DNA from: a virus
Taxonomy: Duplodnaviria; Caudoviricetes
IMG/VR virus record: IMGVR_UViG_3300040971_000158
Coordinates: 1-40,326 of that record
Length of the DNA: 40,326 nucleotides
Strand: one strand, 5' to 3'
Below, one piece after another: positions 2,683 through 21,626 of this stretch (position 1 is the first letter of the stretch; every line of letters starts with the position of its first letter). Made by a program: the position numbers and the translations under genes. A model generated the notes under the pieces. It was not told the origin of the DNA. It saw nothing but the letters and a program-made list of their open reading frames with translations, and searched no databases.

Positions 2683-4071
2683 TTATCTACCTTTCTCCAT
2701 GCAAAATACTGTTTCCCAATCAATGTGCGGTGAACCTTTTTTCTCAGCCAGACGCCGAAAGAAAGATTTGCTTTCGGTAATATGCTGAACCTGTTCACCT
2801 TCGAAATTCAAACTTGTGCCGTGGTGCTTGACCAACATAGCGTGATGCTCATGGAGCGAGATAAAACCAACCGCCTCGCACAATTCGCGCCACTGGTCGC
2901 AAAAAGCAACGCGCTGTTTATTTTTGACATAATCCTTGACAACCCAAATAGCATGACCGCCAGGTTGCAGCACCTCGTAAACCTGTTCGATGATGGCCCG
3001 CGCAGAAAACCAAAAGTCATCTGCTGACCCATTAGTCAATTGACCGATATTTTCCCCATAGCTTTTGGCTGCATTGTTTCCTGCACTATGGCGTTTTATC
3101 AGATCAGGATCCATCCCTTTGGATGCCTTCGTTCCGCCTTCAGATTGCAAAAATGGTGGGCTGCTGATGGCAGCCTGAAAACCGGCATCCGTAGAACGCA
3201 TGGCTCCAAGCTGACCTGATGATTCGCCATAATTTCCATCACCGGTATAGTTACGAAATAAATCATTGAGATTGGATCCACCGGGCGCATTTCTTGTTTC
3301 GGCGTAGGGTGGGCTGGACAAGGCGCAAGTCAGGCCAACACCAAATAAATTGCCGCCCTTGATATGGGATGGATCGCTATCATTCCCGCCGTTGTGCGCG
3401 CACCCGTCTGCATAGGGCGGCGATGAAACTACTGCATAACCTTGATTTCGCTTGCCGATCTTTTCCATATCAATCACTGATACATTGGCAGCATTACTGA
3501 TTCCATGTTCGCGCGCAAACATGGTGCGTTCATTCGGATCAACCCTATCAGCGCTCAGAGAATCAGAAAATGGCGGGCTTGAAATGCAGGCATAGGCCTG
3601 TCCGCGATTAACACGAAGCTTCCCGGCATCCTGACCTTGAATTCCTGAAACTAAAGGGCTGTCTGTGTATGGCGGGCTGGAAACGACCACATTGCCCGCA
3701 GCCAATATCTCGACCAGGTTGCGGGAATCTCCCTGAAGGAGTAAGGCATCACCAGACCATTTTGGCATCGATGCAAAACGCTGGTTCCAGAGTGCAATGT
3801 TTTGATTGCCGATATCAGCAAAGTGGCCTTCGAGTTCAACGCCCCGCCAGGCCAGACCAAGACGCATCGCATCCATCGCCCCTAGAGCAATCCCGCCAAA
3901 GGGGTCAACGATGACATCGCCTGGTTGAATCCAGCCTTCCTCAGCGATATGCTCATAAATCCTTTGAATCAGCCTGCTGGAGAACTTAGCTGGATGCTGG
4001 AAAGCCTCCGGGACAATTTTTCCTTTCCAGTTTGATGGATAACAGTTATTCCATATAGATTTTTCCATCAC
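2683..4071 (-). CDS. DNA amino (N4-C/N6-A) methyltransferase with five repeated SPPY/F motifs
   Basis: HPAKF, SAM-binding VDPFGGIALG, GVELE, GDSR, SSPPY/F x5, VYEVLQPGG. Confidence 0.85.
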   Translation of the reverse strand: MMEKSIWNNCYPSNWKGKIVPEAFQHPAKFSSRLIQRIYEHIAEEGWIQPGDVIVDPFGGIALGAMDAMRLGLAWRGVELEGHFADIGNQNIALWNQRFASMPKWSGDALLLQGDSRNLVEILAAGNVVVSSPPYTDSPLVSGIQGQDAGKLRVNRGQAYACISSPPFSDSLSADRVDPNERTMFAREHGISNAANVSVIDMEKIGKRNQGYAVVSSPPYADGCAHNGGNDSDPSHIKGGNLFGVGLTCALSSPPYAETRNAPGGSNLNDLFRNYTGDGNYGESSGQLGAMRSTDAGFQAAISSPPFLQSEGGTKASKGMDPDLIKRHSAGNNAAKSYGENIGQLTNGSADDFWFSARAIIEQVYEVLQPGGHAIWVVKDYVKNKQRVAFCDQWRELCEAVGFISLHEHHAMLVKHHGTSLNFEGEQVQHITESKSFFRRLAEKKGSPHIDWETVFCMEKGR

Positions 4072-5470: not shown

Positions 5471-5805
5471 CGATTCGCCTCCATCGAAAATAACTTCAAC
5501 TGAATAATCGATTGCTTATTTTCTTGCTCTACTTTCCGTGCTTCCGCTGAAACAATCTTTGCTCGTTCCTGGGCATCTAATTCTGTCTCTACTGCAAGCA
5601 TGGCACCCTCAAGCTTTTCATGCACACCACTGGCAAACTGATCACGTTTCTCGATGCGCCAACGAAATGTATTTTCCTTATCGCCTGGATAATTTCGATG
5701 AATAGTGGCAACCAAATCATCTCTACGCCCATAGGAGATGTATAAAAGCCAGTGCTCACCTGGATGAACAGTATTTTCTCGCCAGGTCAATGGATAATCA
5801 CTCAT
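5467..5805 (-). CDS. Hypothetical protein
   Basis: Fills the operon with overlapping start and stop codons. Confidence 0.65.
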   Translation of the reverse strand: MSDYPLTWRENTVHPGEHWLLYISYGRRDDLVATIHRNYPGDKENTFRWRIEKRDQFASGVHEKLEGAMLAVETELDAQERAKIVSAEARKVEQENKQSIIQLKLFSMEANR

Positions 5806-6679
5806 TCAACACCAACCCTTCTGGAAATTCTTTTTTCGCATTCTTCAACCAATTTCCGCCAGTCTTCAGCGGCACCCCGTAAAGTTCAGAAACTTGCTCT
5901 GCACTTTCCAAACTGGCAATAATCTTCTTCTCACTTTCCGGAACTTTCCGCCAGTCTTTCCACTTGCCAAAAGTTTCTGGAAGTTTCTGCCCGCCATCGG
6001 TAAGTTTCTTAGAACTTTCCGCGTTTTCTGCGAAAGTTCCGGCAAGTTTCCGCGATTTTTCTTCAAGTTTTATCAGTTTCAACTCGTGCGCCTGGCGCTG
6101 TTTTTCAGCTTCCATCTGAAGCTCAAACTCGATTTTTTCTTTCTCGATCTGCCAGGCATGGGCCCGCTCTTCGCGCTCGATCTCATCCTGGCGAGCTTTA
6201 GCTGCTGTTTCCATCTCGTCATTGCGGGCCTGAACCTGCTCCAATGCTGCCAGGGTTTTGCTCATCTGGTTACGCAGGGCTACCATCAGCCCGCCCAAAA
6301 GGCCAAACGAAGCCATCAAAGCTTTAGTAACCTTTACCAGCACCTCGCCAGTATCCAGCAACGAGTTGACCGATACCACTACAAACAGATACGTCACCGT
6401 GCCGCCAAACGCCACCCAGACCAATCCCTGGCTGATCCGTGGCGCATCCCAGCGCTGCATCTGCGCAACCTGTCCATCCTGGTAAAGTTCCAAAAGATCG
6501 AGCGTCGTGGTGATCGTGACAAATCCAATGGCTTCGACTACCACCGCGATCAGCACGGCCTGCCATAATTCATATCCCAAGACAAGATAGGCGTTCTGGC
6601 CTGTCATTGTCGCAGGCACCAGTCCACCGAGCCACGGCAGCACCATTGCCACCCGATCAACGTAAGTCGACTTATCCAT
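5798..6679 (-). CDS. Membrane protein with 3-4 TMs, coiled coil and C-terminal HTH (SpdB/DUF2637-like architecture)
   Basis: Hydrophobic helices, E/K/Q coiled coil, repeat-encoded linker, SAEQVSELYGVPLKTGGNWLK HTH-like end; directly follows the FtsK gene. Confidence 0.7.
   Translation of the reverse strand: MDKSTYVDRVAMVLPWLGGLVPATMTGQNAYLVLGYELWQAVLIAVVVEAIGFVTITTTLDLLELYQDGQVAQMQRWDAPRISQGLVWVAFGGTVTYLFVVVSVNSLLDTGEVLVKVTKALMASFGLLGGLMVALRNQMSKTLAALEQVQARNDEMETAAKARQDEIEREERAHAWQIEKEKIEFELQMEAEKQRQAHELKLIKLEEKSRKLAGTFAENAESSKKLTDGGQKLPETFGKWKDWRKVPESEKKIIASLESAEQVSELYGVPLKTGGNWLKNAKKEFPEGLVLNE
5900..6075. repeat. Short repeat cluster (AAGTTTC / ACTTTCC / GAAAGTTCC) inside the Spd-like gene
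   Basis: AAGTTTC at 5971, 5981, 6002, 6044; several ACTTTCC copies; GGAACTTTC at 5941 inverted relative to GAAAGTTCC at 6032. Confidence 0.65.
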
Positions 6680-8048
6680 TTACCCGCTCCTCGGCGTCCA
6701 AACCGCCCTGGACGTCCAAACCCGTCCGAACCGCGTCCAAACCCCCGTCCAGACCGTCCAAACCGGTGTCCAGACCGTCCGAACCGGCGTCCAGACCGCT
6801 CTCGACCAGGCACAGCGCGTTATCACGATCCGGGCGCATCTGGGCCAGCCCACGCGTCTGCCAGTCGTCACGCATCCGCCTGGCAGCCCGTTCAGGCATT
6901 CCGTAAGCCTGCAAAGCGGTCAAGGTCATCTTGCCGTCGTAGTGATCGCGCAGATAGGCCGCCAGGCGTTCTTCGGCCTCTGTCATGCCACTGGCGTTGC
7001 CCGCCCCGATCGCCTGCTTGTCCATGTAATAAACCTGCATCGCTCCCCAGCGATTGGTCAACGCTCGGCCCTTATGATCCAGCAACTCAGCGCCAGCCCG
7101 TCCCAAAATCATGCGGGATGTGGCCGCATTCGCCACCCGGAAACAAACTCGGGTTGTCATCTGCTCACGCACCGGCCCGACGATGTCCTTTGAAAAATCC
7201 TGCCCGGCCAGGGTCAGATACACCCCATATTTTGCCGCGCCCCAAACCAACCGTGTGGCGGCTTTGGCGAAACTCCCGCCCGGGCCGCCCAGGGCCATTA
7301 CGGCGCCGTTGAATTCGTCCAGGATCGCCAGGATGGGCGGCAGCGGAGTGATGGCCTGCTGGTTGTACTCATCGAGCGTATCCGGCTCATCGCTGACCTG
7401 GCTGAACAGCCTTGACCGCTGGTTGACCAGTTCCTGGATCTGCCCCAACGCCTGGTTGCACTGATCCAGGGTTTTCGCAACCGGGAAGACCAGAGCCTCG
7501 TCGCCGCTGAATTTGCCAAACGTGCGCCCCGCATCTGGGTCACACAGGGCCAGTTGCCAGCCTTCCGCGCGCGCCTGCTCGGCGATCAGCCGTAAGAAAT
7601 TGCTTTTGCCGTAGCGGGTGATGCCGGCAACCAGCATGTGGCCCATCTCAGTCCAGGGCATTTCCACCGCCTGGCCGCGGCCATTGACGCCCAACTGCAG
7701 CATCCCTTTTTTCCAGCCTTTGTACTCGACCATGTCTGGCCAGCTTGGTTTTTCGCTCAATAAAATTCCGTAGCGCAGGCCGGTATGGTTGCTCAGGATG
7801 ACCGGCATCCCGCGCAGGCTCGATGAAAGCCGGTGTGCGGCCGCTTCATACGGCTCATACTTCGGCAAACGGCGGTCATCGAGCACCGCGAACAACCACA
7901 CCGCGCCCCGGCTGGTGCGCGTCAGCACCCAGCGCGCAATCATCTGGTCATCTGTGCCGCTGTTGGCTGCCAGGACCGTCTGCACGATAAGGGATACATG
8001 CGCGGCTTTTTCGTAATATCGGCGTTTCCAATCCACTTGAATCTGCAT
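6672..8048 (-). CDS. FtsK/SpoIIIE (TraB-like) DNA translocase
   Basis: GHMLVAGITRYGKS Walker A, ILAILDEF Walker B, GVYLTLAGQ, RVCFRV...SRMILG..GAELL...GR, and a gamma-domain-like MTLTALQAYGMPERAARRMRDDWQTRGL. Confidence 0.9.
   Translation of the reverse strand: MQIQVDWKRRYYEKAAHVSLIVQTVLAANSGTDDQMIARWVLTRTSRGAVWLFAVLDDRRLPKYEPYEAAAHRLSSSLRGMPVILSNHTGLRYGILLSEKPSWPDMVEYKGWKKGMLQLGVNGRGQAVEMPWTEMGHMLVAGITRYGKSNFLRLIAEQARAEGWQLALCDPDAGRTFGKFSGDEALVFPVAKTLDQCNQALGQIQELVNQRSRLFSQVSDEPDTLDEYNQQAITPLPPILAILDEFNGAVMALGGPGGSFAKAATRLVWGAAKYGVYLTLAGQDFSKDIVGPVREQMTTRVCFRVANAATSRMILGRAGAELLDHKGRALTNRWGAMQVYYMDKQAIGAGNASGMTEAEERLAAYLRDHYDGKMTLTALQAYGMPERAARRMRDDWQTRGLAQMRPDRDNALCLVESGLDAGSDGLDTGLDGLDGGLDAVRTGLDVQGGLDAEERVNG
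6696..6797 (+). repeat. Nine direct repeats of GTCCRRACC (clt/TRS-like array)
   Basis: Copies start at 6696, 6714, 6724, 6735, 6747, 6756, 6768, 6777, 6789. Confidence 0.9.
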
Positions 8049-8050
8049 GG

Positions 8051-9016
8051 CTATACCTGCCCTTCCACGTCATCCACCCAGCCCTGGATGATGTTCTCAT
8101 CGACGATCTCGATTTTCGGAACGTTGCTGGCCACCCCAAAGCTGCCACTGGCAATATCCAAGGCCTGGCGCTGATATCCGGGCGGCAGTTGGCTTATGGC
8201 CTCTACTGCCTGCGCGCGCCGCTTCACCTCGGACTGGTTCTCGCTGGCCCCGATCTGGCGGCCATCGACAATATCCATCACCGGCGCTTCCTGCAAATCC
8301 GGCAGCAATACGCGCATCTGGTCGGTGAAAACCAGGGCGGGCAGCATACCGTTATCGTCGCGCGGCACGATCCCGATCTTGCCTTTTTTCCACAGGTAAT
8401 ACATCCCGGCGATCAGGGCCGCAAAAATCAGGATCAACGGCGTCCAGGCCCAAAAATTATTCGTCATCCGCTCACGCTGCACCGCCAAATCCGCACTCTC
8501 CGACTGGGCATATACCGACGTATGCCTGGCAAAGACAAACGGCGCTTCTGCCGTTGCCGTGGCTGCAACCGCGGTCTGTCCAGCTGCAACCGTCGCCGTG
8601 CCCAGTTTGTAAGCAATTTCAGTCGATGTCCCAGCCGCCGCCGCAGTGCTGGTCGCCTGGTCGCTTGCAGCCCTGGCGGTCGATGTGCCGATTACGCTGG
8701 CAGCCTGCGCGGTAGATGTTCCCTCGGCCTGGGCCGCTTCGATCGTCACCCGCGCGATGGTTTTGGTCTCCTGCGCCGATGCCTCGGTCGCAGTCACCCC
8801 CGCAATCAACGCGGTCGCCGTTTGCTTTGCCTGATGCTCGATTTGTACCTGCGCCGCGGCGCGCTCGGTAACACGCGCTTCGATTTCGGCCTGCAGCGCC
8901 TCAATAAGGATGTGATCATCATTAGTTGGGGTTGCAGTTGGCACGGGCGGCAGAGGTTGACAACCGGTCAAGACCAGAAAAACTACCAAAAATAATTTTT
9001 TCATCATTAACTCCAA
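8051..9016 (-). CDS. Predicted lipoprotein with Ala/Thr-rich stalk and second TM anchor
   Basis: MKKLFLVVFLVLTG-C lipobox, PTATPT and TATA low-complexity region, TM PLILIFAALIAGMYYLW. Confidence 0.75.
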   Translation of the reverse strand: MELMMKKLFLVVFLVLTGCQPLPPVPTATPTNDDHILIEALQAEIEARVTERAAAQVQIEHQAKQTATALIAGVTATEASAQETKTIARVTIEAAQAEGTSTAQAASVIGTSTARAASDQATSTAAAAGTSTEIAYKLGTATVAAGQTAVAATATAEAPFVFARHTSVYAQSESADLAVQRERMTNNFWAWTPLILIFAALIAGMYYLWKKGKIGIVPRDDNGMLPALVFTDQMRVLLPDLQEAPVMDIVDGRQIGASENQSEVKRRAQAVEAISQLPPGYQRQALDIASGSFGVASNVPKIEIVDENIIQGWVDDVEGQV

Positions 9017-9459
9017 ATCTTCGGTTCTTCCGCAGGTTTAGCAGTCTGGTTGTGCGGCGGCTGCTGGGTCTGCTTGCCACTCAGCAGCGTCATGAATTTC
9101 AGCATGTCAGTCATCGTTAGACCCCGCTCACGCGGCTGCTGAGCTTCTTTTTTGCCTTGCCACTGGGCATTTGGCCCGTTTCTCCACGCTCGGCGGGAAG
9201 AAGGTCGCAGCTTCGAGCGCAGCCAGGCAAAAGCCAGTCCGCCAACACCGGCCACGACCACGCCGATCGCAAATTTCAGCAGCCATCCGCCTAGCTGCCC
9301 AACTGCCACCTGCGCCATAGGCATCTGCGCCGCTGCAGTGCTGGCCTGTACCTGGGCTGTGGCCATCTCAACCTGCTGCGCATTGACGATAGACATCCCA
9401 ATCGCCAGCGCCACCAGAATAACAATCACGACCAATCCACCTTCCATACCTGTTTTCAT
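9007..9459 (-). CDS. Two-TM membrane protein
   Basis: AGGAG RBS before MKTGMEG; two hydrophobic helices and a basic tail. Confidence 0.7.
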   Translation of the reverse strand: MKTGMEGGLVVIVILVALAIGMSIVNAQQVEMATAQVQASTAAAQMPMAQVAVGQLGGWLLKFAIGVVVAGVGGLAFAWLRSKLRPSSRRAWRNGPNAQWQGKKEAQQPRERGLTMTDMLKFMTLLSGKQTQQPPHNQTAKPAEEPKIWS

Positions 9460-9475
9460 GCTTTCTTCTCCTTTA

Positions 9476-9766
9476 GTGAAGAGTGGTGAACAGCGACTTT
9501 TTGCACTCTTCACTCCTCACCGATCTTGTGTGTCTTACAAGGCAAAAACAAGCCATAAGTAACCTATACTATTCACAGTTCCTCATCTATTCACTATAAA
9601 AAGCTTGTTTTTTAGATAAATTACTAGTTTTCGGCCATAAAAATGACTTCAAAAAGTCATCAGTGAGGAGGTGAACAGTTTTTTGCAGTATTCACTGACA
9701 AAAAAATGCATTTTTTATTTTGGCCTCAGCATCCAAAACAGTTCACTTCTTCACGAAACTATTCAC
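9476..9766. other. Putative replication origin (iterons around an AT-rich core)
   Basis: TATTCAC x4 (within 9568-9576, 9587-9594, 9688-9695, 9758-9766), GGTGAACAG x2 (9485, 9670), CTTCAC/CCTCAC in both orientations, AT-rich 9595-9660; immediately downstream of the primase/ATPase genes. Confidence 0.6.
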
Positions 9767-11715
9767 CAGGGATACTGTTTTTCATCCTCTGGTTCTTCTG
9801 CAGGCGTGTCATCTATCGTCATTTGGAGCGGCGCGCGCTTCAAATCGACTTTTGCCCGCAATTTCGCCATTTCTTCGCGCGCCTTTTTGATTGTTTCTTC
9901 ATCAGGCAAAACGCCGTATTTTTTCCCTGCAATTTCCATCTTGATATCATCCCAAATACAGAAGAAGCCTTTGTTCGTGCGCTGGGGAAGCTTCCTCAGT
10001 TGAATGATCTCTTTCATGATGCGGCCCACGCGCTGCGTTCCAACCTCGTAGGTTTTCTTGCCCTTTTTTTCTGGATCATCCTTGTTATTGCGCAGGTCCT
10101 GGCCTTCCTGTTTCATCTCCTCGATGATGTTGTTTGCAATTGCGGTTACATCGCCGATTTTGACCAGGATCTCGCCGCTATCGTTGATGACCAGGCGCGC
10201 GCGCATGTCCGCATAGATGTACATCTTCCACAGCGCCTCGACGATGCGCGCCTCGGTTTCCATGCTTTTCTCGGCGGTCTCTTCCAGGTATTTCTCGCGC
10301 AGCATGTCGCGAATTTGGCTTACCAATCTTTCGTTTCCAGACTTCTTCGCCATGATTTTTGCTGGCATCGTGACCTGGTTGTAACGGGGGCTGATAAAAG
10401 TATCGATCAGGCTCATGTCCATATCGATCTTCTGCGATTCCATCATCTGCATCCGCAGCCGTAACAATTTCGGCATCAATCTCCGCCATCCAGCCCAATA
10501 TTTGCTGCCCATTTCCAGCTCGATCCCGGCATCCACCAGTTCTTGCGACGATTTGCCGATCAATCGGATGTCCAGTGAGCGGCTGGCCACCGCGTCATCC
10601 TGGAATTCTCCGCGCATCGAGAAAATCTTTGGGCAGAAACAGGCAAAAGCGCGCGTGCGAAAAGCTTTCACGCCGGTTCGTGGGTTGATCCACTCTTCGG
10701 TGCGATTCACATAGTTGCCGTCCATGGCGCCCATGTTGAAAAATTTCACGATGTTGTTACTGGCCGCACTCTTTTCCATGTCCGCTTCCTCGATGAAGAT
10801 GGTTCCACGCATCATGTCGGTGATGCGAAAAAATACCGATTCGGTATCCCCACCGCTCACTTTTGTCAGCCGGTAGCACAGATGCCCGGCCCGGCGCATC
10901 AGCTCGCTTTTACCGCTGCCTTTATCCCCAATCGCCCGCAGGTATGCCAGCGTGCGGAAGTTCTCGTATACCCACGAGTTGACAATTTGCAGACCGATGA
11001 TGAATGGCGTTCGCTCTTCATCGAACAGGTATTGTTGGCGCATGAAATCAATCACTTCGGTCAGTACGTTTGCCAAATCGACAGGTTCGTTATGGCACCC
11101 GGGCGGCATGACGACACTGGCGCTATCCTGGCCAATGGCAGGCATGATGATCGGTTCTTCATCTGGCTCGAACGGAATCAATCTGAAACGGCTGCCATTG
11201 TTGTTAAGCACCAGTTCTTTGCCGCTCTTGATGTTCCCGTTCGGATCACGCCACACCAGGTATCCGCTTTTATTTTCATAGTCGAGCCAGTAATCGACAA
11301 AATACAGGCTATCGCCATCCCTGAACCAGCCGCCGAATGTCGGGATTTCCGGGATATCGTCCTTTTTTTTCTTCGCGTCGCGCTTGTTCCCGGCCAGGGC
11401 ATTGTTGAAATCCCGAACACTCAGGCCAGCTTTGCGTGCGAGCTTGGAGCGCCACATTCCCAGTGTTTTCTCGTCGAGCTGGCTGGTCAATTCAACGAGG
11501 TCGGTAATTGCATCCTCGTATTCGGTGGACCAATCATCATCTTTATGCTTGGGCGCGAAACTGCCAGCCTTTTCGGCCAGCAATTCGACCAAAGGTTTTG
11601 CCACCACAAGCATGCCTTGCAGCTTGGCAGCCTGGGTTTCAGCATCAAATTCGGCTGCCTGCCACTGGATCAAGAGATCGTTCAGATCAACTTTATTCTT
11701 GGATGTCGTTTCCAT
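9763..11715 (-). CDS. Primase-associated P-loop ATPase/helicase
   Basis: GDKGSGKS Walker A, IFIEEAD Walker B, PKIFS sensor, SR arginine finger; GAGGAG RBS before METTSK at 11715. Confidence 0.75.
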   Translation of the reverse strand: METTSKNKVDLNDLLIQWQAAEFDAETQAAKLQGMLVVAKPLVELLAEKAGSFAPKHKDDDWSTEYEDAITDLVELTSQLDEKTLGMWRSKLARKAGLSVRDFNNALAGNKRDAKKKKDDIPEIPTFGGWFRDGDSLYFVDYWLDYENKSGYLVWRDPNGNIKSGKELVLNNNGSRFRLIPFEPDEEPIIMPAIGQDSASVVMPPGCHNEPVDLANVLTEVIDFMRQQYLFDEERTPFIIGLQIVNSWVYENFRTLAYLRAIGDKGSGKSELMRRAGHLCYRLTKVSGGDTESVFFRITDMMRGTIFIEEADMEKSAASNNIVKFFNMGAMDGNYVNRTEEWINPRTGVKAFRTRAFACFCPKIFSMRGEFQDDAVASRSLDIRLIGKSSQELVDAGIELEMGSKYWAGWRRLMPKLLRLRMQMMESQKIDMDMSLIDTFISPRYNQVTMPAKIMAKKSGNERLVSQIRDMLREKYLEETAEKSMETEARIVEALWKMYIYADMRARLVINDSGEILVKIGDVTAIANNIIEEMKQEGQDLRNNKDDPEKKGKKTYEVGTQRVGRIMKEIIQLRKLPQRTNKGFFCIWDDIKMEIAGKKYGVLPDEETIKKAREEMAKLRAKVDLKRAPLQMTIDDTPAEEPEDEKQYPW

Positions 11716-15967: not shown

Positions 15968-16154
15968 TCACCTCGCTGCAAGCCGCAACAAATGCGATCC
16001 AGGCTCCAACTGCATCGCGCAGCTTTTCCGCCTGTTCAATGTTCAGGCTGACAACCTCGCCATTGAGATCGACGATCAGTTCTTCGGCGTAAGTCGTGTC
16101 AACATAGATGGAATTTCCATCCTTATCTTCGAGCTCCAGATCATCTGCCATCAC
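15954..16154 (-). CDS. Small acidic hypothetical protein
   Basis: Coupled between the recombinase and the methylase. Confidence 0.6.
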   Translation of the reverse strand: MMADDLELEDKDGNSIYVDTTYAEELIVDLNGEVVSLNIEQAEKLRDAVGAWIAFVAACSEVSDVA

Positions 16155-17047
16155 ATCCCCCCCAGCGCCATCTGCATATCATCCCAACCCGGTGCGGTGT
16201 AGCGCAGGGTTGTTTCGATGCGGACATGCCCGAGCAGCTTCTGCACAATCCCCAACTGGACCGGCGTGCCGTTGACGGCGTTTTTGCCGTCTGCGGTGCG
16301 CTTGGCAAATGTGTGCCGCAGATCATGGCACGACAAGCCCGGGATTGAAGCTTCAGCGCCGATATCGGTCACGACCCGTTGCATGGTGCGATTGGTAAGA
16401 TCAAAGACCATCTCGCCGGCGGAAATTTCCAACCAGGCTACAAGCGCGCGCCGGGCCGCAAGCGAGAGCGGCACGTTACGAGATTTTTCGCCCTTACCAC
16501 GGACCACATGCACGACCCCGCTGCGCTCGCCAATCTCGATATCGGACCTGCGCAAGCCGGATACCTCGCTCACGCGCAGCCCTGCAAACAGCATCACCGA
16601 GACCAAAGCCCGATCGCGGATGGCGCGTTCGTGCTGCAGCGTGGTGATAGCTCTCTTTGGCAATCGTTCCAGGGCGCGCACCAGGCGGCCATATTCAGCA
16701 TCATCCAGCCAGCGGATGGGGCTTTCCTGCTGCTCCTGGGTTGCCACGCCGTTCATCAGGCTGGGGTCGCCGATCCACTCGGCCAGACTGGCCAGCCCCG
16801 CGCGGCGGACGTTCCAGGTGGCCGCAGCCACCCGCTGGATATTGAGCGACCACTGTCGGTACGCCAACAGGTCGTAATTGGTGGCCATAGCCGGGTCGAG
16901 CGCCTCGCGATAGGTGCTCTCATACCAGGCTGCAAACTTGCGCGCGGCCTGTACATGAGACAGGACGGTCAGATCTGCGAGCTTGCGCCCGTTGACGACG
17001 CGCGCCTGTAACCAGGATTGGAATTCAGTTTGCCAATTCGCGTTCAT
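16151..17047 (-). CDS. Tyrosine recombinase (XerC/D-like)
   Basis: Complete catalytic set: GLRVSE, GKGEKSR, HDLRH, LLGH, TTLRY; N-terminal core-binding domain. Confidence 0.95.
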   Translation of the reverse strand: MNANWQTEFQSWLQARVVNGRKLADLTVLSHVQAARKFAAWYESTYREALDPAMATNYDLLAYRQWSLNIQRVAAATWNVRRAGLASLAEWIGDPSLMNGVATQEQQESPIRWLDDAEYGRLVRALERLPKRAITTLQHERAIRDRALVSVMLFAGLRVSEVSGLRRSDIEIGERSGVVHVVRGKGEKSRNVPLSLAARRALVAWLEISAGEMVFDLTNRTMQRVVTDIGAEASIPGLSCHDLRHTFAKRTADGKNAVNGTPVQLGIVQKLLGHVRIETTLRYTAPGWDDMQMALGGM

Positions 17048-19970: not shown

Positions 19971-21626
19971 ATGTCATCTGCCCTTGACCCGATCATCCCG
20001 CCCCCGCCCGCCCTTACGCCCGGATCAACCGTCTGGGCCTATTTGCGCGATTCGGGCGGCAGCGGTCAAGACCGATCGGTGGAACAACAGCGTCAGATCG
20101 TCCATGAAGTCTGCGCCCGCTACGGACTGATCCTCGAGCATTTATTCGAAGACGCCGCCATCTCGGGCAAATCCACCTCGGGCCGTTCCCAGTTCGATCA
20201 GATGCTATCCCTTTCGACCCAGGCCGACAAACGTCCGCAAGGCCTGCTAATCTGGAACTTTGCCCGCTTTGCCCGCAACACCGACGACAGCCAGATCTAC
20301 AAAGGCATCCTGCGCAAGCGCGGCATTATCATCCATTCCCTCACCAACCAAATCCCTGAAGGCCCTTTTGCCGCTGTCATTGAAACTCTGATCCATGTGG
20401 CGGATGAGCAAAAACGCGCTGAAGCTGCCGCGGGTGCCTGGCGCGGCCTGCACTCGGTCGTGGCCCAGGGCGCCGTCCCTGGCACTCCGCCGCGCGGTTT
20501 TATGCGTGAGCCGATGACTGTCGTCAGCGAACGCGGCGTATCCCGCATCGCCCACCGCTGGGCGCCCGATCCCGAAATGACGCCCCGCATCCGTAAAGCC
20601 TTCGCCATGCGCGCCGAAGGCCGCTCGCTGAAAGAGATCAAGGCCGAAACCAGGCTCTACAAGGATCTCAATAGCTACACAACCTTTTTCGCCAATCGTC
20701 TCTACATCGGTATTTTGGATTACGGTGGGAAGGAATTCGTCAACTACTGCGAACCTGTTATCGATATGGAGACCTGGCACACGGTCCAGGAGATTGCCCG
20801 CCAAAGCGCCGCGCGCCAGCACGTCAAAAGCGATGGACCCAACCACCCGCGCCGCAAGAACTCATCCTTCCTGCTCACCGGGTTGGCATTCTGCGCCCGC
20901 TGCGGCGCGCCGCTCTATGGACATACCTCGGGCCGTCCGCTTTATGCCCCGGCCCGCGCCTATCGCTGCACCCAGGCCAAGCGCAACCAATCCTGTGATC
21001 TGCCCCGTATCCCTGATCACGCCCTCGAAAAACTGGTCATCGATGGCCTGAAGGAAATTGAGAGCAACCCGCATTACATCGAAGAAATGCACGCCCAGGC
21101 CCTGGACAAATCTCAGAACGCCGCCGGCGAAATAACCGCCAAGCGCCGTCAGATCAACGCCGATCTCAAATCAGCCCGCGCCAAACTGACCAACGTCACC
21201 AACGCCATCGAAGCCGGTGGCCACACACCCGCCTTGCTTGCGCGTAACGCCGAGCTCGAAACTGACATTGCCAGCATCCAAACCAGCCTGCGGGCGATTG
21301 CCGAAACATCTGCCGAATCTGCTCCGCCTGAAAGCGTAGAAGAGATCCGTGAGCGAATGCGCCTGGCCTGCCTGGCCATCGAGCATGCCGCCACCCCTGA
21401 AGAAACCCAAACTATCTTGCGCGGCATCCTGGCCCGTGTCGTCGTCGAGCGCCACGAGAACGAGCTTTTCCTTGGCCTCGACATCTGGATTCCTAAAAAA
21501 AAAGCCCATCCACCCCCTGAAAACGATGAAATAAATTGTGTGCCTTCATTGAGCATCCCCGTGGGGGCACAGGTCTATAGGCACACAATTGCCGCCGTTA
21601 TAACGAAAAAGCCCCGCTCGAAATGA
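19971..21626 (+). CDS. Large serine integrase
   Basis: AYLRDS catalytic Ser, FEDAAISG..GRSQF, recombinase domain (NRLYIG, EPVID...W..VQ), zinc ribbon CARCG...YRC...C, coiled coil. Confidence 0.95.
   Translation: MSSALDPIIPPPPALTPGSTVWAYLRDSGGSGQDRSVEQQRQIVHEVCARYGLILEHLFEDAAISGKSTSGRSQFDQMLSLSTQADKRPQGLLIWNFARFARNTDDSQIYKGILRKRGIIIHSLTNQIPEGPFAAVIETLIHVADEQKRAEAAAGAWRGLHSVVAQGAVPGTPPRGFMREPMTVVSERGVSRIAHRWAPDPEMTPRIRKAFAMRAEGRSLKEIKAETRLYKDLNSYTTFFANRLYIGILDYGGKEFVNYCEPVIDMETWHTVQEIARQSAARQHVKSDGPNHPRRKNSSFLLTGLAFCARCGAPLYGHTSGRPLYAPARAYRCTQAKRNQSCDLPRIPDHALEKLVIDGLKEIESNPHYIEEMHAQALDKSQNAAGEITAKRRQINADLKSARAKLTNVTNAIEAGGHTPALLARNAELETDIASIQTSLRAIAETSAESAPPESVEEIRERMRLACLAIEHAATPEETQTILRGILARVVVERHENELFLGLDIWIPKKKAHPPPENDEINCVPSLSIPVGAQVYRHTIAAVITKKPRSK
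21534..21590. other. Putative attP inside the integrase 3' end
   Basis: Perfect 12-bp inverted arms AATTGTGTGCCT/AGGCACACAATT around a 33-bp spacer centred on ATCCCCGTGGGGGCAC, which looks like a tRNA 3' end. Confidence 0.7.

Follow-up and report, generated by a model that had tools for sequence, protein, structure and literature searches.

A clustered nine-copy repeat at the 3′ end of a phage FtsK-type ATPase gene as the candidate DNA site of the ATPase's own winged helix

Why should the last 41 codons of an ATPase gene in a tailed phage carry nine copies of one short DNA word, all pointing the same way and all lying behind the codons of a winged-helix-like domain? The gamma domains of FtsK, SpoIIIE and TraB read oriented 8-mers (the KOPS, SRS and TRS motifs being quoted as GACCCGGA, GGGNAGGG and GAGAAGGG), and the original prediction for this locus was that the repeated word, GTCCRRACC, is a loading site read by the very protein whose gene contains it. 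Here, we examine that proposal across a family of related loci and propose, at a probability of about 0.58, that the array is a DNA-level site of the ATPase's own winged helix, used for loading of the kind known from TraB and clt and likely for cell-to-cell transfer.

The phage, the array and the ATPase

The window (the whole 40,326-base stretch analysed here) is an entire contig with a 118-base terminal repeat and therefore a complete circle of ~40.2 kb. It encodes virion proteins (terminase, prohead protease, head and tail proteins) together with a serine integrase, a tyrosine integrase and a primase, and is, judged by this gene content, a temperate tailed phage. The tyrosine recombinase (16151-17047), common to non-phage elements, and the large serine integrase (19971-21626) are accompanied elsewhere in the window by a DNA methylase-like gene built of several repeated SSPPY/F blocks (2683-4071). 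No relaxase or T4SS family was detected among the 45 window proteins scanned, and no match covering 80% of the ATPase protein was found among GenBank phages (102 weaker records) or PLSDB plasmids (425 weaker records). The features under discussion are collected in table 1.

Table 1. Features of the ATPase locus, in window coordinates.
Feature	Position	Strand	Basis or remark
Downstream membrane protein: three hydrophobic segments, coiled coil, C-terminal HTH-like end	5798..6679	-	Spd-like architecture
Second, near-palindromic array: ten AA[GC]TT cores, typically GAAA[GC]TT	5879..6072	.	Inside downstream gene, before HTH-like end
FtsK/SpoIIIE-type ATPase, 458 aa	6672..8048	-	Pfam PF01580, E 2.7e-8; fold matches
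Array of nine co-oriented GTCCRRACC words	6696..6797	+	Inside last 41 codons of ATPase gene
C-terminal three-helix and beta-hairpin domain, residues ~352-416	6801..6995	-	Proposed array reader
Codons of E386 and R387, helix 3 residues 1 and 2	6888..6893	-	Track word bases 2 and 1
Lipoprotein-like membrane protein	8051..9007	-	Invariant lipobox Cys, Ala/Thr-rich stalk, second hydrophobic segment
Second upstream membrane protein, two hydrophobic segments	9007..9513	-	Hydropathy; true start probably downstream of longest-ORF start

All nine copies lie on the plus strand, antisense to the ATPase gene (starts at 6696, 6714, 6724, 6735, 6747, 6756, 6768, 6777 and 6789), and a recount gives the start-to-start spacings first reported, namely 18, 10, 11, 12, 9, 12, 9 and 12. 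The same holds for the claim that one copy falls in another frame: the copy at 6724 is read as VRT and the remaining eight as GLD or GSD. In those eight in-frame copies Gly is always encoded by GGT and Asp always by GAC, codons with usages of 16% and 37% in 13 long genes of the phage; duplication of one ancestral unit could be another source of this uniformity. The tail encoded by the array (residues 419-458) is unstructured in the model (pLDDT <50). Eleven matches to GTCCRRACC occur in all 40,326 bases, two of them beyond the array, against an expectation of 0.77, and none of 100 shuffles reached this number. Two public assemblies (X1 and X5, both possibly the source of the window) cover the stretch unbroken with zero differences, and contigs from two other studies (X6 and X8) keep the array with four listed differences each, three of them in one spacer. 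The nine-copy array is confirmed as real.

A genome-wide oriented signal of the KOPS type, for which the original prediction had suggested a motif count, is ruled out, as just three GTCCRRAC sites lie off the array in the 40 kb of the window. In G001, a host genome, CTCAAACC occurs no more often than its control word (234 vs 242).

The motor of the ATPase is intact across its relatives: Walker A (G142-S149) and Walker B (D244-E245) are kept in 48 of 48 aligned sequences, with G147, K148, S149, D244 and E245 as invariant columns. Its structural model (mean pLDDT 89) has the FtsK motor and TcpA as top folds (Foldseek to FtsK motor 6t8b, E 1e-19; Z 27.6 against 2ius; best Z for the whole motor 28.6, to TcpA 6o1x, over 326 aligned residues at rmsd 6.0). 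The C-terminal domain is modelled with helices at 357-370, 376-382 and 386-399 and strands at 402-405 and 411-414 (pLDDT 77-98 by block), which is likely to be a winged helix. Pfam returned weak HTH or winged-helix matches only (FtsK_gamma in 1 of 46 members, E 0.035), a profile of the domain against solved structures in the PDB found no significant match (best E 0.14), and a fold search starting from a helix-domain model built on one sequence, a poor query at mean pLDDT 67, gave nothing usable.

Array words and helix residues across the family

Viral contigs yielded no relative when scanned with the one protein; the relatives came from an alignment scan. The scans yielded 202 loci, 42 of them from named genomes (mostly Anaerolineae or other Chloroflexota). 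Loci L010-L080 (71 of the 80 viral loci) were omitted as distant FtsK-like genes, L022 excepted; 124 rows, including the window, were scored as family members reaching the helix, and 102 non-redundant loci were analysed once duplicates and loci cut too close had been dropped. Arrays were called from the best repeated 7-mer within 200 bases past the helix codons, and the same procedure was applied to 93 in-gene control windows. Clusters of at least five copies were present in 90 of 102 loci versus 0 of 93 controls, and clusters of at least four in 98 loci versus 7 controls; at L085 and L126 no array was seen.

These arrays show little regard for the coding sequence in which they sit. Of the 98 arrays, 43 have at least one copy beyond the stop codon and 18 have at least half of their copies there; six arrays (L022, L087, L159, L163, L164 and L178) lie wholly beyond it. 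Two or more reading frames are used in 81 of the 85 arrays with at least two coding copies, and the strand of the array relative to the gene is reversed in 7 of 89 labelled loci, the window included. Frame independence, copies past the stop codon and strand flips therefore place selection on the DNA, as had been proposed from the window, and exclude selection on the peptide for the family. The opposite case, a GLD peptide conserved among homologues with freely varying synonymous positions, did not materialize: the encoded peptides are unrelated across the family (GLD, VQT, DKP, SNR and GKP), and spacers vary with the word preserved.

If the helix reads the array, the two should change together. 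Words were labelled in a curated version (12 set by eye) and a separate rule-only version that labelled 89 of 102 loci; labels and labelling rule alike were devised after the data were seen, and the word of the window clade has one C more than GTCAAAC, so its register is a choice. Under the rule-only labels, helices with ER at residues 386/387 go with GT in 20 of 20 loci, EK with GT in 3 of 3, EW with CT in 27 of 29, QR with GA in 9 of 11 (the other two reading TA), QG with TA in 4 of 4, and KR, KN and RN together with GG in 8 of 8. Exceptions to the pairing are the RR loci without G at base 2, a misfit at L001, the two words of L195 (ER) and the mixed arrays of the QH helix (eight loci). In QH loci such as L112, L115, L127 and L182, bases 1-2 of the word are degenerate inside each array, as if this helix read them loosely. 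At L195 (~11165-11285), copies of GACAAACC and GTCCAAACC are mixed behind the ER helix, which could be a word caught in turnover.

When each base was predicted from each of 418 alignment columns, with whole clusters of related helix domains left out, E386 was the top column for base 2 (0.86-0.87 under the curated labels, against a median of 0.37-0.43; 0.85-0.86 under the rule-only labels) and R387 the top column for base 1 (0.88-0.92 against 0.67-0.69 for the runner-up; rule-only, 0.83-0.84). Over both label sets the column medians were 0.37-0.46, and the two residues ranked first at every cut-off. The covariation between recognition helix and repeat that the original prediction had named as a check is hence found, at the first two residues of helix 3. 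Contacts of Gln with adenine and of Arg or Lys with guanine are familiar from protein-DNA complexes. Because the word changes with residues 386/387, the array is likely the binding site of the ATPase's own winged helix, and we consider direct binding of the array by this helix highly probable.

Reader and site also travel together, as predicted. Among 419 pairs of loci with motors at least 85% identical (pairs that are not independent), 178 differ at residues 386/387; in these the helix domains have a median identity of 47% and the word differs in all 169 labelled pairs, whereas pairs with the same two residues share the word in 225 of 227 labelled cases. The motors of L113/L134 and of L124/L135 are 96% identical, with helix domains at 35-53% and different words; in both pairs, and in L110/L116, identity drops from 95-100% to 35-55% at about residue 340-360. 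Helix and array have thus been swapped as one cassette onto near-identical motors, and such swapping accounts for how elements sharing a cell could each reserve their pump for themselves.

This linkage in one cassette is the reason why tree tests matter. On a helix-domain tree with three helix positions masked, E/non-E changes five times and T/non-T six times. Independent starred pairs agreed in ~4/4, 4/5, 3/4 and 3/3 cases, with none opposite, in four of six rule tests; the tests comprise 3-5 pairs each and none is significant (median p 0.125-0.25). AU tests on the helix-domain tree, run on an author-chosen 52 of the 102 rows with the E, ER/EK and QG groups noted before any tree, rejected a single origin for E (p 0.0015), ER/EK (p 0.0005) and QG (p 0.002). 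Among pairs less than 40% identical in the helix domain (again not independent), the word is shared in 187 of 200 if both residues match and in 58 of 1,884 if they differ. By correlation only, word specificity appears to be set by residues 386/387 of helix 3; counting against such a residue-word code are the post hoc labels, the few starred pairs, the exceptions, the chosen register and a helix domain without a significant match.

Neighbouring genes and competing readings

By hydropathy the window ATPase has no transmembrane segment, and a hydrophobic segment within the first 100 residues is present in 6 of 158 proteins of 380-520 aa. A lipoprotein-like gene lies upstream of the ATPase in 57 of the 67 loci with enough flank, and the profile of this upstream family matches the N-terminal part of four longer ATPases (P0120, P0178, P0117 and P0190; best E 3e-26). 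An ATPase without a membrane segment and the existence of natural fusions together make the upstream lipoprotein the likely separated anchor, and it is probable that this protein tethers the pump to the membrane. The P0120 fusion (630 aa) seems to be without both the conserved C-terminal peptide of the anchor and the N-terminal domain of the motor, a hint that the two missing parts dock with each other where anchor and motor are separate proteins.

The family of the second upstream membrane protein occurs in 33 of 102 loci, and the downstream membrane protein is found in the same position in only four of 102, a second family counted in; an Atlas search offers SpdB_N for it in 29% of one cluster (score 0.81), as a lead only. 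The second array, inside the gene for this downstream protein, is the densest AA[GC]TT-type cluster of the window and uses two reading frames. Loci L001 and L002 have arrays like it, and L022, L009, L082 and L083 have other repeated words ahead of a different C-terminal domain.

We hypothesize that the helix domains of a ring-shaped motor would bind the clustered words, that the ring would load onto its own element at the membrane (likely held there by the upstream lipoprotein), and that the pump would drive a double-stranded circle through a septum or into a different filament, on the model of Streptomyces TraB acting at clt. Motors of this type form rings, and Anaerolineae grow as filaments. 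By analogy, this proposal is favoured by relatives with the Int-Rep-Tra gene set, by the lack of any detected relaxase or T4SS family and by the precedents of TraB/clt and pWTY27. Counting against transfer are the facts that a tailed phage spreads without conjugation, that the best whole-motor Z belongs to TcpA, a coupling protein of T4SS type, and that an actin-like or ParA partition ATPase lies downstream in 51 of 102 loci. Given binding, transfer between cells or across a septum is, in our estimate, a moderately probable purpose. A bolder version, in which Chloroflexota phages and integrative elements would share a relaxase-free, two-part TraB analogue with a swappable cassette and a two-residue/two-base code, and in which the phage would pass its genome along or between filaments without virions, is offered tentatively and falls somewhat short of an even chance.

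Integrase, replication gene and FtsK-type Tra are united in one element at L163, L178, L181 and L186; at L163, L181 and L186 these are a tyrosine integrase, a primase/helicase and the ATPase module, and no virion genes were found among the proteins scanned there. Adjoining the element at L178, on the opposite strand, are Pvc16, baseplate and tail-sheath genes (L178:550-6215) that look like a host contractile injection cluster. A related phage, L005, has terminase and portal genes, and a DUF2637 protein (L005:2175-3125) a few genes upstream of the module. A tRNA scan found a tRNA gene in 4 of 29 loci; those 2-4 kb upstream of the ATPase (L190:7979-8052, L195:6143-6216 and L199:7958-8034) are possible integration sites.

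The gene downstream of the array is actin-like in 37 of the 102 loci, ParA in 14, a membrane protein whose gene has an array of its own in four and other or none seen in 47. Actin-like (ALP_N) genes with a small ribbon-helix-helix-like gene (L141:1625-2626, L130:2964-3212 and 50 similar loci) occur in Anaerolineae integrative elements and form an apparent ParM/ParR-type pair.

The chief competitor of the loading and transfer reading is segregation inside one cell lineage, which we judge unlikely. Here, too, the helix would bind the array, with the tethered motor segregating or anchoring an excised or plasmid-state element in one cell or at filament septa. FtsK and SpoIIIE do segregate DNA, (PMC3384302), and SpdA2 of pIJ101, a protein with a palindromic binding site inside its own gene, has an effect on stability but not on transfer (PMC4170104); the frequent partition genes after the array and the virions encoded by the window itself point the same way. 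However, the elements with actin-like or ParA genes already have a likely adaptor (families 5, 14 and 13), which would make a second motor redundant, the lipobox and outward stalk of the upstream partner point to work across the envelope, and the virion-less integrative relatives have no other visible route of spread in the flanks scanned.

The remaining readings are weaker. It is improbable that another protein binds the array, such as a ParR-like adaptor at a parC-type centromere, with the agreement of the helix arising by hitch-hiking on the swapped cassette. In favour of this, the helix lies next to the array, the two have demonstrably moved as one, and independent starred pairs are few; yet an identical word occurs with actin-like, ParA or neither gene downstream, words differ in 9 of 28 adaptor pairs and 78 of 144 actin pairs at 70% identity or more, only two of 418 columns stand out, both at the start of helix 3, and identical residue-word pairings reappear in helix lineages that are separate. 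A parC-type centromere is rejected on these grounds, the word tracking neither actin nor adaptor and no ParR-like adaptor being present beside the array in the window. Slightly less credible still is an operator or roadblock at which the bound ATPase helix would control the genes starting just downstream: at many loci no more than some tens of bases separate the end of the array from the ribosome-binding site of the following gene, but that gene varies from locus to locus while the array stays with the helix, and the conserved, intact motor would be unneeded for regulation alone. Finally, repeats arising as a by-product of a low-complexity GLD tail or of neutral slippage, a reading that could draw on the unstructured tail and on the single frame shared by most copies in the window and its three closest loci, are very improbable, being largely refuted by the arrays wholly past the stop codon and opposed by the wholly different peptides, by copies in several frames or in non-coding DNA and by words kept among varying spacers.

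Comparison with known DNA-pumping systems

No published description of this family was found in the literature on Chloroflexota, Anaerolineae and phage FtsK-TraB proteins (mostly open-access main texts). What is new here is the phylum, the phage, the split anchor and the two-residue code. The original prediction had presented the physical linkage of site and reader as novel; this part does not stand, as the clt of pWTY27 already overlaps traA, although the covariation of word and helix does. If the loading and transfer reading is true, TraB-style transfer of double-stranded DNA would extend beyond actinomycetes to a second filamentous phylum, and temperate phages would carry it. With no fewer than five natural helix/word pairs (GT, CT, GA, TA and GG), the family makes the specificity change of FtsK-type readers testable by point mutants; DNA motors could be given orthogonal loading sites, and Anaerolineae a transfer tool.

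With the TraB/TraA proteins and clt sites of Streptomyces (pSVH1, pIJ101, pJV1, pWTY27 and the AICEs), the present system has in common an FtsK-type ATPase with a C-terminal helix domain, one compact cluster of 7-9-bp direct repeats that differs between elements, and, in the case of pWTY27, a site at the 3′ end of the tra gene. TraB recognizes 8-bp clt repeats via helix 3 of its winged helix (PMC3583192, citing Vogelmann), the clt of pWTY27 takes in the final 16 bp of traA and a further 159 bp (PMC3583192), and the Int-Rep-Tra triad, shared by the integrative relatives of the window ATPase, is the defining set for AICEs (PMC3218068). The differences are several: the hosts here are Chloroflexota, whereas those of Streptomyces elements are Actinomycetota; the ATPase is without a transmembrane segment, its putative anchor being encoded apart, by a lipoprotein-like gene; most or all of the array falls within the last codons of the ATPase gene itself; and complete tailed phages are among the carriers, with actin-like or ParA partition genes often following. 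Moreover, the present system is known from sequence, and transfer is ascribed to it by analogy. As the ATPase lacks a membrane anchor of its own and transfer by it is a proposal, we do not classify it with TraB.

The likeness to TcpA of Clostridium pCW3 lies in the best whole-motor Z; TcpA is a coupling protein of a T4SS-like system (PMC5365140), whereas the scan of this complete phage detected neither a relaxase nor a T4SS family. SpdA2/sps of Streptomyces pIJ101 shares with the second array of the window the logic of a palindromic site in a protein's own coding region; in the window the protein concerned is a membrane protein whose C-terminal end is HTH-like, and the likeness is one of logic, not of sequence. 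FtsK with KOPS and SpoIIIE with SRS share with the present ATPase the motor fold and a C-terminal winged-helix-like domain, here proposed to read short oriented words, and in those systems, too, word and reader domain change together between lineages (co-evolution, PMC3384302). KOPS, however, are spread and skewed along whole chromosomes, whereas the word described here is confined to one array, whose orientation with respect to the gene is reversed in 7 of the 89 loci with labels.
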